From NCBI GenBank assembly GCA_963796455.1, contig CAWCLO010000004.1, positions 32,001 to 96,000 on the forward strand: DNA of 64,000 nt. The letters are read 5' to 3'. Positions 9,796 to 43,270 of the stretch are shown here, one piece after another; the first letter of the stretch is position 1, and every line of letters begins with the position of its first letter. Source of the stretch: Candidatus Sulfomarinibacteraceae bacterium. Lineage in GTDB: Bacteria; Acidobacteriota; Thermoanaerobaculia; Thermoanaerobaculales; Sulfomarinibacteraceae. A program made the translations under genes and the position numbers. The notes under the pieces were generated by a model. It saw nothing but the letters and a program-made list of their open reading frames with translations, was not told the origin of the DNA and ran no database searches.

Positions 9796-10100
9796 TCCGG
9801 CATCACTCGTGTCTACCAGAGGGGCAGCAGCGACAGAGAACAGCGATCAGCGGCAGCGGTCAGGAGTACAGGCGACGAAGTGGCAACCTCCTGGTCGTTC
9901 AACGAAAGGAACGGCCGTTGTGGTGTAGGCGTCTCGCCTGCACACCGTGCGGCCGAGACGGCCGCACCACAAAGGCCGGAGCCCCGAAGAAGTGAGTGCT
10001 GTTCGCTGTCCCGGCCGTTGATCGCCGACGCCGACGACTGAACGCTGACGCTGACTACTGTCCACTGTCCCTGCTTGCCGTCCCTGGCGCTGTTTCTGAA
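9796..10100 (+). mobile_element. ORF-less derivative of the four-helix-bundle element containing a REP doublet
   Basis: Left end, CAG arrays and ...CAGGAGTACAGGCGACGAAGTGGCAACCTCCTGGTCGTTCAAC match the full copies; GAAGTGAGTGCTG plus CTG arrays match the post-stop region of copy C. Confidence 0.75.
9919..9971. repeat. inverted pair of 25-bp REP-like units (REPIN-like)
   Basis: TGTGGTGTAGGCGTCTCGCCTGCAC and the inverted GTGCGGCCGAGACGGCCGCACCACA, each with an internal hairpin. Confidence 0.75.
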
Positions 10101-10237
10101 ATCTGTCCAAGACAGAGTCTCGGCTGGCGTTCAGGGACGGCGACAGCGATCAGCGTCAGGGACAGGGAACAGCAATCAGTGTTCAGCGTCAGCGAACAGA
10201 AGTCAGCGTCACGTTTGACTGGCATGGGGCCCTGAAA

Positions 10238-10591
10238 TCAAGACTTCGGGTTGAGCAATCTCCAAGTCATTGCACGCACCTGATCAAAGGCCTTCATCGC
10301 TTCACTGGCTCTGTTCGGGCTGATCGCCCCGGCGTGAGCGAGAAGCTGCAAGTGGCTGTCGACCTCTTTGGCCGAGGCGTAGGCGATCCTCCAGTGGTTC
10401 GACCGGTCTCTACCAAACCGGCCGTGCCCTTCTGCCAGGTTCGCAGGGACCGAACTTGCCGACCGGATCACCTGATCGGCTATCGACTTCAGAGGAGCTG
10501 GAACCCTCATCACGAGCTTGATCGCGATTCCTGCGGCTTCGAGTGCTTTCGAGTGGGCAACGAGTTTGGTGTTCGTGGCGGCGTTGGACAT
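10238..10591 (-). CDS. four helix bundle protein (23S rRNA IVS / Avd-like family), copy A
   Basis: DQVIRSASSVPANLAEGHGR and AYASAKEV family motifs; GGAGGT RBS before ATG. Confidence 0.9.
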   Translation of the reverse strand: MSNAATNTKLVAHSKALEAAGIAIKLVMRVPAPLKSIADQVIRSASSVPANLAEGHGRFGRDRSNHWRIAYASAKEVDSHLQLLAHAGAISPNRASEAMKAFDQVRAMTWRLLNPKS

Positions 10592-10728
10592 GGTCACCTC
10601 CGGGTCGTTCATGCCCATACCCACAAGCCGGTGTGGTGGCCGATGTCAAGGATGCCCTGCACCCTGCCTGTCCTTGACATCGGCCGCCCACCGGCTACCT
10701 CTTCTGTTGAACGACCCGGTGGTGGCCA
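10591..10728 (-). other. conserved nested hairpin leader of element copy A
   Basis: Same inner and outer stems as 36048-36186 and 42661-42798. Confidence 0.8.
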
Positions 10729-11003
10729 CTTCGTCGCCTGTACTCCTGACCGCTGCCGCTGCTCTCTGGCGCTGAACACTGACCGCTGTCCCTGTTCGCT
10801 GTTGCCTGTCGCTGACGCTGGACACTGTCGCTGCCGCTGCAATTCGGGATCGGGAACGGGTACGTGCCAACCGCGAACCGGATATGCCAAAAACCAACCC
10901 GTAAACCACGTGTTGTCAGGTGGGTAACTTCAGGTGACGATCTGTTTTGGACAGCAGTGATCCTGCATCTTGAATCTTGTGGGCGGGCTAAGCTGGTCAT
11001 ATC

Positions 11004-11585: not shown

Positions 11586-12296
11586 TTAATTTTCAGGTAC
11601 AAAGCCGAGTCGAACCAGGGCCCGCCGGGCCGCCTGCTGCTGCGCCTCTCGCTTGCTGACGCCTTCGCCGCGGGCAACTTCGTCACCATCCCACTCGACC
11701 ACGTAGACCCACAGACGTTGGTGGTCGGGGCCTGATGCACCGGCCTGCCGGTACCTCGGTAAGGGCAGATTGCGCGCTTGCGCAGCCTCCTGGAGCGAAG
11801 ACTTCGGATCGGCCAGAGCGAGGGTCCTGTCATCGAGATTGTTGAGATCTTCGGCAAACTGATGTTCGATAAAGGCGAATGCCGCCTCCCAACCACCGTC
11901 GAGAGCGATCGCTCCAATGATGGCTTCGAACAGATCTTCGAGCAAAGCGGAGCGTTCCCGTCCTCGACCCAGTTCTTCGCTCGGTCCGAGCTCGACCCAG
12001 CCGTCGAGACCGAGCAGGGCGGCCCTCTCGGCCAGTCTTTCCGATCGCACGAGGTGGACCCGCTTCCGGGTCAAGAGGCCCTGGTCATCATTTGGAAAGA
12101 TCTCGAAAAGCAGTCGCGCGACGGCGTGCCCGAGGACCGCGTCGCCGAGGAACTCGAGGCGCTGATAGGACCCCGCTGTGTACGCGGTGGCCGCTGAACC
12201 GTGGCGCAGCGCGCGCCGGAGAAGCTCGGGGTCGGAAAAACTGTGACCCAACAAGGCTTCGAGATCTGTGACAGCGTCGTCTCTGAGTCCGGTCAT
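11586..12296 (-). CDS. rnc: ribonuclease III
   Basis: YQRLEFLGDAVL, EDLFEAIIGAI, C-terminal dsRBD (DPKSSLQE...GPDH...SKREAQQQAA). Confidence 0.95.
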   Translation of the reverse strand: MTGLRDDAVTDLEALLGHSFSDPELLRRALRHGSAATAYTAGSYQRLEFLGDAVLGHAVARLLFEIFPNDDQGLLTRKRVHLVRSERLAERAALLGLDGWVELGPSEELGRGRERSALLEDLFEAIIGAIALDGGWEAAFAFIEHQFAEDLNNLDDRTLALADPKSSLQEAAQARNLPLPRYRQAGASGPDHQRLWVYVVEWDGDEVARGEGVSKREAQQQAARRALVRLGFVPEN

Positions 12297-12377
12297 GGGT
12301 GCATTGTACCCGCGGTTGCAGGCCGCCGAGAGCATTTCCGGAGGGATGATCGCGGCAGAGGAAGGTACGATGTCGTG

Positions 12378-34747: not shown

Positions 34748-35743
34748 TCAGGACTCCACCAGGACTGACTTCCAGTCCTCGGTTCCGAGCCCGAGCCGTG
34801 CCGCGATGGCGATATGGGGCAGTTCTTCGGGGCCGAGGTCCAGAAGGCTCGCACCCCACGCGTCCGCGGCCACCGGGTCGGTTGCCACCGCCACACAATC
34901 GGTGGCCTTGACCAGCGCCAGCGATCCTCCGGTCGGCCCCCCACCGGTGAGGATCCGGGTCGCGTCGATGACCGTCAGTGTCGGTCGAAAGGCGGCTCCG
35001 AGTTCAGCGCAGACCTGGGCGATTCGCTGGTGGAGATTGGGCCGTCGGCCGACCACCGCCCCAAACCAGTTTTTCATCCCGAGGGTGCCGCGTGAAAGAG
35101 AGTGGTGTTTGACCACCGGTACGTTGATGACACGGTCGGCCTCGACGATCGGTCGCAGGACCTCCCACGGACCGAGAGTGGTTCCGCCCAGATTGAGTGT
35201 CACGGTGCTTGTGTTGTTCTGGTGGGCGCAGCTTGCACCCGCTTCACCAGCCGCGGCTTCGATGCCGGAGCGGGTGAAAGCGCGGCCGGGATCGTGGCAG
35301 GAATTGTCAATCACTACCACCGAGGCGGCGCCCGCAGCCAGACACTGGCGGGCCAGTTCGGCGATGACTTCCGGATCCGTGTTGGCAGCCTGTGCCGGTC
35401 GCCGGTCCCACGCACAATTGGGTTTGAGGACCACCTTTTCGCCCGGTTTGACGAATTGCTTCATCCCACCCATGGCGCCGAGCGCCGCTTGGATATTGGC
35501 AGTCGGACCGTTTCCGCAAGCCGTCGCGATCCGACCGGGGCCGGCCGGATCGGTGCGCCAATCCTTTGGCGAAGGGAGCGCCGCGACTTCGGGCGGTCGA
35601 TGGCGGCCGCCTCGGCCCGAGAATCCAAAACCGAGGGCGGCGAGTGCGAGACCGGCCGCGGTCGGGGGAACCCACTGGCGGAGAAGCTCACGTCGCCCGA
35701 GTTGCTGGTAGTCATTGACGATCGGAAGATTTTTGTCAGTCAT
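34748..35743 (-). CDS. DUF362 domain protein
   Basis: VVLKPNCAWDR, ANTDP, INVPVVKHH, TLGMKNWFG, DPVAAD; RR-containing leader. Confidence 0.85.
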   Translation of the reverse strand: MTDKNLPIVNDYQQLGRRELLRQWVPPTAAGLALAALGFGFSGRGGRHRPPEVAALPSPKDWRTDPAGPGRIATACGNGPTANIQAALGAMGGMKQFVKPGEKVVLKPNCAWDRRPAQAANTDPEVIAELARQCLAAGAASVVVIDNSCHDPGRAFTRSGIEAAAGEAGASCAHQNNTSTVTLNLGGTTLGPWEVLRPIVEADRVINVPVVKHHSLSRGTLGMKNWFGAVVGRRPNLHQRIAQVCAELGAAFRPTLTVIDATRILTGGGPTGGSLALVKATDCVAVATDPVAADAWGASLLDLGPEELPHIAIAARLGLGTEDWKSVLVES

Positions 35744-36047
35744 AGCGCCCTCGCGGCCTCAAGTGTAACGCGGCTTCCTCAGTTGCCGGATCACTGTTGT
35801 CCGAAACAAATCGTCATTTGCGGTTGCCCACCTGCCAATACGTGGTTTATAGGTTGGTTTTTGGCATATCCAGTTCGCGGTTACCCAGCGTCCGAGTTCG
35901 AGTCCGAGTCCGTGTTCGCGTCCGTGCCCGGATTGCAGCGGCAGCGACAGTGTCCAGCGTCAGCGTCAGCGACAGGACAGCGTCAGGAACCAGCGATCAG
36001 TGTACAGGGACAGGGGACAGCGGCAGCGGTCAGGTGCAGCGACGGCG

Positions 36048-36186
36048 TGGTCACCGCCGGGTCGTTCAACAGTAAGGGGTAGCCGGTGGGCGGCCGATGT
36101 CAAGGACAGGCAGGGTGCAGGGCATCCTTGACATCGGCCGCCACACCGGCTTGTGGATATGGGCATGAACGACCCGGAGGTGACCA
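36048..36186 (+). other. conserved nested hairpin leader of element copy B
   Basis: Outer stem 36048-36068/36166-36186 (20/21); inner stem 36081-36106/36125-36151. Confidence 0.85.
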
Positions 36187-36539
36187 TGTCCAACGCCGCC
36201 ACGAACACCAACCTCGTTGCCCACTCAAAAGCCCTCGAAGCAGCAGGAATCGCGATCAAGCTGGTGATGAGGGTTCCGGCTCCGCTGAAGTCGATAGCCG
36301 ATCAGGTGATCCGGTCGGCAAGTTCAGTCCCTGCAAACCTGGCAGAAGGTCACGGCCGAGTCGGTAGAGACCGGTCGAACCACTGGAGAATCGCTTACGC
36401 CTCGGCGAAAGAGGTCGACAGCCACTTGGAACTCCTCGCCCACGCCGGGGCGATCAGCCCGAACGGAGCCAGTGAAGCGATGAACGCCTTCGATCAGGTC
36501 CGTGCCATGACTTGGCGACTGTTGAACCCGACGAAGTGA
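36186..36539 (+). CDS. four helix bundle protein, copy B
   Basis: 7 aa differences from copy A and 6 from copy C over 117 aa (hand count). Confidence 0.9.
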   Translation: MSNAATNTNLVAHSKALEAAGIAIKLVMRVPAPLKSIADQVIRSASSVPANLAEGHGRVGRDRSNHWRIAYASAKEVDSHLELLAHAGAISPNGASEAMNAFDQVRAMTWRLLNPTK

Positions 36540-36837
36540 GAGCTTTTCACTGGCGCTCTCGCTGCCCCGGCCCCGGCCGCTGTTCGCTGCCGCTGATGAC
36601 TGAACACTGCCCCTGACTACTGTTCCCCGTCGCTGCCCCTGTACGCTGTCCGAGACGCTGTTTTGGAAAAGAGTGCCTCCGGATACCGATTCCAGGGTTT
36701 CGACCCCGCCCGGGGAATTGAGCCGCTCACGTGAACGTAGTTCCAGAGGTCTGACACCTGAAGTCCAGAAAACGGCACCTGGCTCGTTGTAGAATGTCGG
36801 GCATCAAAAACTGCCGAAGAGAACTGGAGCGGCACAC

Positions 36838-37428
36838 ATGGCAAAGATACTCATCGGATGCGGGTTGGCATTTGTTCTCCTGTTGGGGATCGTCGCCTTC
36901 ATGGTCACTGGAATCTATAACAATCTCGTCGGTCTGGAAGAGGGCGTCGATGCGGCCTGGGGCCAGGTCGAAAACGTCTATCAGCGGCGGGCCGATCTGA
37001 TCCCGAATCTGGTCGCCACGGTCAAGGGAGCCGCCGAGTTCGAGCAGGAAACACTGCAGAACGTGATCGAGGCGAGGGCCAAGGTCGGGCAGATGAATAT
37101 CGAAGGTGCGCCGACGCCAGGCCAGATGCAGGCGTTTCAGGCCAACCAGGATGCGTTGTCGTCGGCTCTTTCGCGTCTGTTGGTGGTTGTCGAGCGCTAC
37201 CCGGATCTGAAGGCTGTGCAGGCGTTCCGGGATCTCCAGGTGCAGCTCGAAGGGACCGAGAACCGGATCGCGGTCGAGCGCAACCGCTACAACGAGGCCG
37301 CGCGGCTCTACAACACGGCGCGGCGGAGTTTTCCGGCGGCCCTCTTTGCGAATCTCTTCGGATTCGGGGACAAGGGTTATTTCGAGTCGAAGCCGGGAGC
37401 CGACGAACCGCCACAGGTTGAATTCTGA
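36838..37428 (+). CDS. lemA: LemA family protein
   Basis: YQRRADLIPNLV, VVVERYPDLKA, LEGTENRIAVER. Confidence 0.95.
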   Translation: MAKILIGCGLAFVLLLGIVAFMVTGIYNNLVGLEEGVDAAWGQVENVYQRRADLIPNLVATVKGAAEFEQETLQNVIEARAKVGQMNIEGAPTPGQMQAFQANQDALSSALSRLLVVVERYPDLKAVQAFRDLQVQLEGTENRIAVERNRYNEAARLYNTARRSFPAALFANLFGFGDKGYFESKPGADEPPQVEF

Positions 37429-42355: not shown

Positions 42356-42660
42356 CGGGTCCTCCTTGTGGGGTCGTATGAGGTTAGCAGGATTCAGGAA
42401 TAAGGAATTCCGGATCTCCGCCCAGGATCATCTCAGAAATCGCTATCGCCATCGGAATCGCTATCGCGATCGACGTGAACCCGATCTGCAACCCGGATGG
42501 CTGCTTCAATCGAGCATTAGCATCCAGAATCACTGCCCGAATTGCAGCGATGGCGACAGTGTCCAGCGTCAGCGACAGACAACAGCGAACAGGGACAGCG
42601 GCAGGGAACAGCGACAGAGGACAGCGGCGGCGGCGGCGATCAGGAGTACAGGCGGCGAAG

Positions 42661-42798
42661 TGGCCACCTCCGGGTCGTTCAAAGGAAGGGGTAGCCGGTG
42701 GGCGGCCGATGTCAAGGACAGGCAGGGTGCAGGGCATCCTTGACATCGGCCACCACACCGGCTTGTGGGAATGGGCATGAACGACCCGGAGGTGACCA
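42661..42798 (+). other. conserved nested hairpin leader of element copy C
   Basis: Same stems as copies A and B. Confidence 0.8.
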
Positions 42799-43151
42799 TG
42801 TCCAACGCCGCCACGAACACCAACCTCGTCGCCCACTCGAAAGCCCTCGAAGCAGCAGGAATCGCGATCAAGCTCGTGATCAGGGTTCCAGCTCCTCTGA
42901 AGTCCATAGCCGATCAGGTAGTCCGATCGGCGAGTTCAGTCCCTGCCAACCTGGCAGAAGGCCACGGCCGATTCGGTAGAGACCGGTTGAACCACTGGAG
43001 AATCGCGTACGCCTCAGCCAAAGAGGTCGACAGCCACTTGCAGCTCCTCGCCCACGCCGGGGCGATCAGCCCGAACGGAGCCAGTGAAGCGATGAACGCC
43101 TTCGATCAGGTGCGTGCCATGACCTGGCGGCTCTTGAATCCGGAGAAGTGA
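42798..43151 (+). CDS. four helix bundle protein, copy C
   Basis: Same motifs as copies A and B. Confidence 0.9.
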   Translation: MSNAATNTNLVAHSKALEAAGIAIKLVIRVPAPLKSIADQVVRSASSVPANLAEGHGRFGRDRLNHWRIAYASAKEVDSHLQLLAHAGAISPNGASEAMNAFDQVRAMTWRLLNPEK

Positions 43152-43270
43152 GTGCTGTCGCTGATCGCTGACGCTGACTACTGTTAGCTGTTCACTGTCG
43201 CTGTCGCCGTCCCTGAACGGTAGCCGAGAACCTGTCTTGGACAAGAGTGATGCGGGATCCAGCATCCTGC

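Follow-up and report, generated by a model that had tools for sequence, protein, structure and literature searches.

Mobile insertion cassettes are defined in PMC6199540, as far as the available portion of that account goes, by the inverted repeats of an insertion sequence (IS) enclosing one or more coding sequences, with no transposase, over a length of 0.7-3 kb, and movement in trans has been demonstrated for MIC231. ORFs of unknown function are also reported to be carried often by MITEs (PMC10969869, in part). Proteins of the PF05635/TIGR02436 kind are recorded in several other settings: 18 such genes lie inside cas loci according to the excerpted text of PMC3936711, a resemblance of PF05635 to Avd is noted in the available portion of PMC10053308, and a proposal made in 1993, cited in the accessible part of PMC4990558, holds that the ORF of 23S rRNA intervening sequences (IVSs) encodes something needed for mobility, an idea that is unproven. 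Literature searches, conducted on a set from which subscription papers are mostly absent, revealed no description of the cassette reported here.

The window, i.e. the whole stretch of 64,000 nucleotides that was analysed, contains three copies (A, B and C) of an element with a shared order of parts, situated between the genes that the original prediction had named. The existence of the copies and their neighbourhoods was thus borne out, although their extents have been revised: the interval previously assigned to copy B (35786-36682) includes flanking sequence, and the limits of copies A and C were similarly corrected (Table 1). Copy B starts with CACTG and finishes with GAGTG, and the flanking bases, TTGCCGGAT and CCTCCGGAT, match at 6 of 9 positions. 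Only ~6 bp of the upstream end is kept in copy C, through an internal deletion. The ORFs of the three copies are 90.6% (A/B), 89.5% (A/C) and 92.3% (B/C) identical at the nucleotide level, and the end motifs are matched in random windows at a rate of ~1%. A contig from another study's run spans the right junction of copy B with one difference in 165 nt, and two contigs from RNA runs cover its 3' half and flank, which is not proof of transcription; no sigma-70 promoter or terminator pattern was found in 35700-36850. An RNase III gene (window 11586-12335) lies ~600 bp from copy A, past Mut7-C, a proximity that is probably coincidental.

Table 1. Positions in the window of the cassette copies and of the parts of copy B.
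Feature	Position	Strand	Remarks
Copy B, complete cassette, 884 bp	35792..36675	+	paired ends
Copy B, upstream terminal inverted repeat (IRR of cognate IS4)	35792..35815	+	
Copy B, subterminal segment, from IS4 3' non-coding end	35816..35885	+	shuffle test on copy A segment
Copy B, hexamer array, then CAG-rich 6-7-mer array (5' arm)	35886..36046	+	sequence; varies between copies
Copy B, nested hairpin over both candidate start codons and GGAGG	36047..36187	+	z value and covariation
Copy B, four-helix-bundle ORF, TIGR02436/PF05635	36165..36539	+	124 aa from 36165; 117 aa from 36186
Copy B, CTG-rich array (3' arm)	36540..36651	+	sequence; generic arm complementarity
Copy B, downstream terminal inverted repeat (IRL of cognate IS4)	36652..36675	+	
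Copy A	10104..10959	-	ORF 10591-10238, upstream ATG 10612; downstream end without outer 6 bp
ORF-less sister fragment	9810..10103	+	joined tail to tail to copy A; hairpin and ORF replaced by REP-like doublet
Copy C	42531..43249	+	ORF 42798-43151, upstream ATG 42777

The arms on either side of the ORF had been described as complementary, and this holds as a trait of the family but not copy by copy. The duplex energy of an arm with its own partner (-103.1) is far from that with a shuffled arm (-64.0) but is no different from that with the arm of another copy (-102.7, p 0.63), and copy-specific co-evolution of the arms was rejected on that basis. Folding of the whole element gave z = -5.6 (20 shuffles).

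The three coding copies of the original prediction proved to be a small sample. This genome (G000; 5.02 Mb, 90.5% complete) carries 59 full-length copies of the ORF, 58 of them intact and one with a stop near its end, together with 44 partial matches, many cassette fragments and 70 ORF-less sister cassettes that have one REP-like core in common. Both ends are kept by 28 of the 59 full copies, the downstream end only by 17, the upstream end only by seven and neither by seven; elements with paired ends and a full ORF (n=26) measure 782-895 bp. The copies are located between protein genes, and a preference for divergent gene gaps was considered and rejected (a crude gene caller placed 9 of the 59 in divergent, 25 in convergent and 25 in tandem gaps). 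The same deletion junction, at a 7-bp microhomology, recurs in nine copies whose alleles differ, which may reflect a single origin followed by conversion, or recurrent deletion. Some ORF-less cassettes are 95-98% identical over their whole length. Four further TIGR02436 genes in G000, at C4:1278079, C1:983116, C9:2705 and C10:733016, belong to other subfamilies. Among the 41 genomes searched, G000 included, 29 gave a match and several others none; G004, G006 and G040 have 45-54 matches each (matches, as opposed to copy numbers), and copy number within one genus ranges from 0 to ~60. Loci examined in relatives are the best-scoring matches rather than every copy.

The ends of the cassette, imperfect inverted repeats of ~24 bp beginning CACT, are of a known kind. 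They are matched by inverted repeats of the IS4 family, of the IS4Sa type, including those of an intact IS in the same genus. Of the 24 PF01609 loci in the genus, one, at G017:C434 (L033), is bounded by cassette ends, and its transposase is of the IS4 family (NF033592, 251 bits against a cut-off of 115; DUF4372 plus DDE_Tnp_1). The YREK motif, spaced Y-2-R-3-E-6-K in this enzyme, is present in it and in the transposases of L111, L126 and L127. The family consensus 18-mer of the upstream end is identical to the end downstream of the L033 transposase, and that of the downstream end is identical to the IRL of L126, with three mismatches against L033. When transposase loci with enough flanking sequence were compared, both ends lay within three mismatches of the cassette 18-mers at 11 of 13 loci with at least 65% identity to the G017 enzyme, at 17 of 28 loci with 53-65% identity and at two of 28 below 53%. 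Perfect 9-bp repeats flank 11 of 53 autonomous loci, no other length from 4 to 13 being represented. The subterminal segment of copy A scored against L033 above all of 500 shuffles, while its scores against L126, L127 and L111 were reached by 2, 23 and 93 of 500 shuffles, respectively; homology to the 3' non-coding end of the IS is clear for L033 and L126, weak for L127 and absent for L111. Subgroup IS4Sa is characterised in Table 1 of PMC2266710, as excerpted, by CA------T ends and direct repeats of 8-10 bp, and the end signature and repeat length of the putative parent IS fit this subgroup.

The cassette encloses no transposase, its conserved ORF being the PF05635 gene, and none of the end pairs with proper termini encloses a long ORF. 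Against the IS4 reading, the cognate transposase gave no match in the G000 assembly (best tblastn E 0.55; genome 90.5% complete) or in G006, and was found in only one of 25 genomes of the genus. The copies in G006 have a median identity of 98% and look young. The enzyme may have gone unassembled in both genomes, or may have been lost or only transiently present. The original prediction had allowed for an ordinary MITE with a passenger gene should the ends belong to a known IS family with its transposase present; the family is indeed known, but the transposase resides in a relative and not in this assembly. An exact search of a contig collection with the 24-nt upstream end gave no matches, the genome itself and its nearest relatives possibly being absent from that collection. 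Other sources of the ends were considered and dismissed: the single PF01609 gene of G000 (C7:291107) has different ends, and an IS1380 end in G004 and G006 resembles the motif at one end only. No ISL3 transposase was found in G000. Separately, C7:290800-293858 of G000 holds a DDE insertion sequence that is unrelated, present once and bracketed by a pair of 60-bp repeats; beside it, at the contig end, is a frameshifted transposase that we take to be IS110-like.

Target duplication was examined in 70 elements with paired ends, among which a few false or aberrant pairs were left. Perfect 9-bp repeats flank 19 of these and repeats with at most one mismatch 36, as against 1.4 and 6.2, respectively, for mismatched flank pairs. 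Over repeat lengths of 2-16 a clear excess occurs at 9, with an echo at 16 that corresponds to 9 bp plus one heptamer. In G006, nine of 18 two-ended copies have a perfect duplication. The equivalent figure for full-ORF copies with both ends in G000 is only eight of 28, which counts against the cassette model; of the 70 ORF-less cassettes, 28 have both ends and nine of those a perfect duplication. The target consensus is AT-N5-AT, and insertions favour such sites in heptamer arrays, the local arrays supplying the targets. Some cassettes in G000 (C1:754686, C5:83811, C2:82711 and others) have inverted rather than direct 9-bp flanks, and these are centred between two inverted heptamer arrays.

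Orthologous sites in relatives are mostly empty. ORF and ends are both absent from the acnA/Mut7-C spacer in all 14 syntenic relatives, and from the DUF362/lemA spacer in 15 of 18 relatives, the latter spacer containing a different copy in the opposite orientation in G006 and the same ends around another, palindromic cargo in G008 and G021. The locus of copy C is not syntenic, since META lies upstream of DUF438 in none of seven relatives. Base-exact empty alleles were not seen because the relatives are different species with fast-changing spacers, and no joint between the two flanks appeared in seven public contig runs, which do not extend across the stretch. In the DUF362/lemA (L011-L030) and acnA/Mut7-C (L324-L340) spacers, short conserved blocks adjoin the genes and the filling between them is species-specific, made up of REP-like palindromes and of 6-8-mer arrays that are often in inverted orientation; independent IS4-ended insertions are present in the DUF362/lemA spacer in three species. 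The earlier view of a mobile, transposase-free, multicopy cassette was therefore upheld. By the published definition (PMC6199540, in the portion available) the element is a mobile insertion cassette, and its ends, duplications and empty sites argue for movement in trans. That the shell is an IS4-ended cassette moved by a transposase of the IS4Sa type is, on these sequence data, highly probable.

The cargo comprises a hairpin and the ORF that follows it. The hairpin at 36047-36187 has z = -10.4, none of 200 shuffles being as good, and compensatory changes occur in 23 of 39 predicted pairs (27 sequences, 13 genomes), a count of the sort that kinship inflates. Its core, TGTCAAG/CTTGACA, is nearly invariant, and in 52 of the 58 copies scored the middle stem has GTAG at its foot. 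Rfam offered nothing near a gathering score, only generic hairpin matches, and a model of the hairpin found no match in 140 other genomes of the phylum, a weak negative given that 21 candidates were scored per genome. All three ORFs in the window match PF05635 (~56 bits, cut-off 33.8) and TIGR02436 (~58 bits, cut-off 24), in agreement with the original assignment of the sole ORF to an IVS/Avd-like four-helix bundle. The frame of the 117-aa ORF also stands, but the protein may be 124 aa in length, since a further ATG in the same frame, 21 nt upstream (36165 in copy B), is retained by 58 of 59 copies, and no other start aligns in the distant relatives G036 and G040. In L008 (G017) and L020 (G006), immediately before the ORF, the right arm of the hairpin is interrupted by a related extra palindromic segment, which takes the place of the upstream ATG but leaves the second.

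The predicted structure has four helices (pLDDT 91) and matches the folds of Xcc0516 (2gsc, E 1e-5), BT_0352 (2rld) and, more weakly, Avd (4dwl, TM 0.75, E 0.046). To our knowledge, proteins of PF05635/TIGR02436 have solved structures but no known function beyond the Avd relatives. A family member from Xanthomonas is reported as a homopentameric ring, and the Coxiella relative encoded by an IVS as probably not expressed and decaying, in the accessible text of PMC4990558; the latter counts against a role for the cargo. The Avd-like predicted fold, the structured leader and the fine mosaicism of the copies (see below) would suit spread through RNA and a reverse transcriptase (RT), the four-helix bundle then playing the part that Avd has in diversity-generating retroelements. 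Such a route is very improbable: no PF00078 match was found in G000 (90.5% complete), the ends are of the DDE type with a 9-bp duplication, and there is no adenine bias, the 82 A of the ORF having 21 singleton changes and its 114 C having 43.

The original prediction had suggested that an RT or a HUH/RAYT-type enzyme may mobilise the whole element. Given that no RT match in G000, no adenine bias and no Y1 gene with the hairpin or inside the ends was observed, and that the ends are IS4-type with a 9-bp duplication, both routes are unlikely for the element as a whole; likewise, the Y1 transposase that it suggested might share these ends was found neither between them nor beside the hairpin. The GTAG tag does give slight room for a HUH enzyme acting on the inner module. 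The hairpin and ORF could themselves be mobile as single-stranded DNA, through a RAYT/TIRYT-type HUH enzyme that reads the tagged hairpin, with the IS ends representing later hitch-hikes. The tag recalls the GTAG-tagged REPs of PMC3733652 (excerpted text). Six Y1 transposase genes are present in G000, and the REP-like doublet that stands in for most of the hairpin and ORF in the ORF-less sisters, inside the same IS4 ends, matches repeats flanking two Y1 transposase genes (L285/L286). Dozens of matches also occur in G004 and G040, where the sampled loci show no recognised ends. However, the hairpin is found at none of five distinct Y1 loci (best blastn E 0.14), all 65 TGTCAAG..CTTGACA palindromes in G000 are in a cassette-type context with none free-standing, and the absence of ends in relatives may signify decay or an unrecognised end type. 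Mobility of the inner module by this means is accordingly judged improbable.

The module is not confined to the IS4 shell. ISL3-type ends surround it at 10 of 11 loci in G014 and nine of 11 in G017, and at least seven of 8 bp are duplicated at nine of 13 two-ended loci of this type. The module within ISL3-type ends and an 8-bp duplication was found in G014, G017, G008, G016, G020 and G005. In G017, one such cassette neighbours an intact ISL3 that bears the same ends. Neither end type was recognised at 12 of 12 loci in G040, four of four in G036 and 11 of 13 in G004, and these loci are left unexplained by an account based on two shells. In a tree of 82 rows (a subsample, midpoint-rooted, from which the G040 rows were removed by a stop-codon filter), the 18 IS4-shell rows form one clade (100/100) among copies with an ISL3 shell or no recognised ends, a pattern suggestive of a single later capture by the IS4 shell. 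The hexamer arrays flanking the G040 copies are direct and not complementary. At G040:C393, C500, C52, C26 and C411 and at G036:C86, diverged four-helix-bundle genes occur in pairs of opposite orientation, separated by a few hundred bases and bounded by direct hexamer arrays, IS4 or ISL3 ends not being recognised. Near many G040 and G036 copies (L252, L255, L254, L268, L274 and L276) is a short GGTACC-containing motif resembling the inverted repeats around a long Y1 transposase in G000 (L281).

Selection was examined among the copies in G000, for which pairwise dN/dS is 0.16 (1711 pairs). Singleton alleles are near neutral, with 38 synonymous to 69 non-synonymous changes (0.68), alleles present in 2-3 copies give 58:30 (0.19) and those in at least four copies 79:27 (0.13), the classes differing with a Fisher p of 1e-8. 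Purifying selection on the shared alleles is strong. New alleles in dead ORF halves, which serve as a neutral control, comprise three synonymous changes, 14 non-synonymous changes and one stop. Rough within-genome ratios in five relatives are 0.05-0.17. These data mean that alleles reaching several copies came from protein-intact donors. The pattern may be accounted for by an advantage in cis, on entry into a new host or for the host itself, and shared alleles that are old imports from a wider pool may also give rise to it, with no effect in cis. A strict need for the protein in cis is excluded, since ORF-less cassettes have spread about as widely with duplications of their own. Linkage between copies decays within ~30 bp, with four gametes in 90% of distant site pairs; the copies are thus fine mosaics, which points to frequent gene conversion, to which assembly may have contributed.

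The same observations bear on whether the gene in the IS4 cassette is a passive or host-useful passenger, selected at host level (through dosage, or through mutant subunits poisoning a ring) or earlier in a wider pool, with gene conversion shuffling the surviving alleles. The comparable spread of cassettes without and with the ORF (70 vs 59) is in keeping with this, as are the rapid decay of linkage, by which alleles cross between copies without transposition, and the slight synonymous excess that remains among singletons (p 0.036). Conversely, a ratio of 0.19 for alleles in only 2-3 of 59 copies is strong for a dosage effect, the range of copy number, down to one weak match in a 95%-complete genome, fits a selfish gene better than a needed one, and the module has been amplified in two unrelated shells. 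A passenger is therefore considered rather unlikely.

The reading preferred here joins the IS4-ended cassette to a hairpin and four-helix-bundle module that would aid the spread of the copy encoding it, and taken as a whole it is reasonably probable. The IS4 shell would have captured the module once, in an ancestor of the G000 and G006 copies, and amplification would have taken place while the transposase was present. The hairpin, by covering the start codons, may keep translation low; the protein may form a ring of the Avd/S23p type and bind the hairpin as RNA or single-stranded DNA, and the bound protein could then raise the chance of its own copy serving as donor in transposition or gene conversion. 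The ORF-less sisters would use the transposase, and perhaps also the protein, in trans. The component concerning the cargo, namely binding of the protein to the hairpin of its own element and preferential use of that copy as donor, is a serious but tentative suggestion drawn from sequence comparisons. A broader version is doubtful, if worth entertaining: the hairpin and four-helix-bundle module would be a selfish unit independent of any shell, its protein binding its own RNA or single-stranded DNA and making its own copy the preferred donor, with amplification by IS4, by ISL3 and also without recognisable ends. Were that so, ORF-bearing rRNA IVSs would have the module as their free-living mobile counterpart, and the very large TIGR02436 family would gain a function. 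The cassette makes the mobility idea of 1993 directly testable, owing to its defined ends, named candidate transposase, natural ORF-less controls and the contrast in selection between shared and private alleles. Should the protein prove to be a passive passenger, there would remain a mobile insertion cassette of modest interest, unusual for its high copy number.

Compared with described systems, the cassette resembles the REPs and REPINs of RAYT/TIRYT in its GTAG-tagged hairpin and in the Y1-associated doublet of its ORF-less sisters, but the tagged stem-loop measures ~70 nt, against 20-40 bp for REPs (PMC3733652, in the part available), and the hairpin lies inside DDE-type ends and is absent from the five distinct Y1 loci compared. 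The likeness to Avd lies in the predicted fold (TM 0.75-0.77 to 4dwl and 8ub7, ~10% identity, E 0.04-0.05), although Xcc0516 and BT_0352 are closer structures, and in contrast to diversity-generating retroelements no RT was found, no template/variable repeat pair was seen and there is no adenine-biased change. With the ORF-bearing 23S rRNA IVSs (S23p, PF05635) of Coxiella and Leptospira the cassette shares the protein family, complementary flanks and heptamers upstream of the ORF (PMC4990558, excerpted), but its ORF is under purifying selection and is not in rRNA: the 23S match in G000 (3011 nt, C10:140644-143654) overlaps none of the 73 TIGR02436 matches. The cassette is, then, neither an rRNA IVS nor a diversity-generating retroelement. 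The autonomous IS4Sa element at G017:C434 has the same terminal repeats, CA------T signature, 9-bp duplication and subterminal homology, and differs in that the cassette is devoid of transposase and carries the four-helix-bundle gene in the direction opposite to the former transposase gene. MIC231, of the IS231 subgroup of the IS4 family, is likewise built of two IS4-family inverted repeats with a coding sequence and no transposase inside, has a subterminal segment in common with its parent IS, and, in the available account, accommodates varied cargoes within the same ends. The present cassette departs from it in having ends of the IS4Sa rather than the IS231 type, ~60 coding copies in one genome, and a cargo that is a single module of structured RNA and ORF under selection among copies, found also within ISL3 ends. 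To call it an ordinary MITE with a passenger would undersell the element, as its cargo is found in the shells of two unrelated ISs and selection acts on it among copies.
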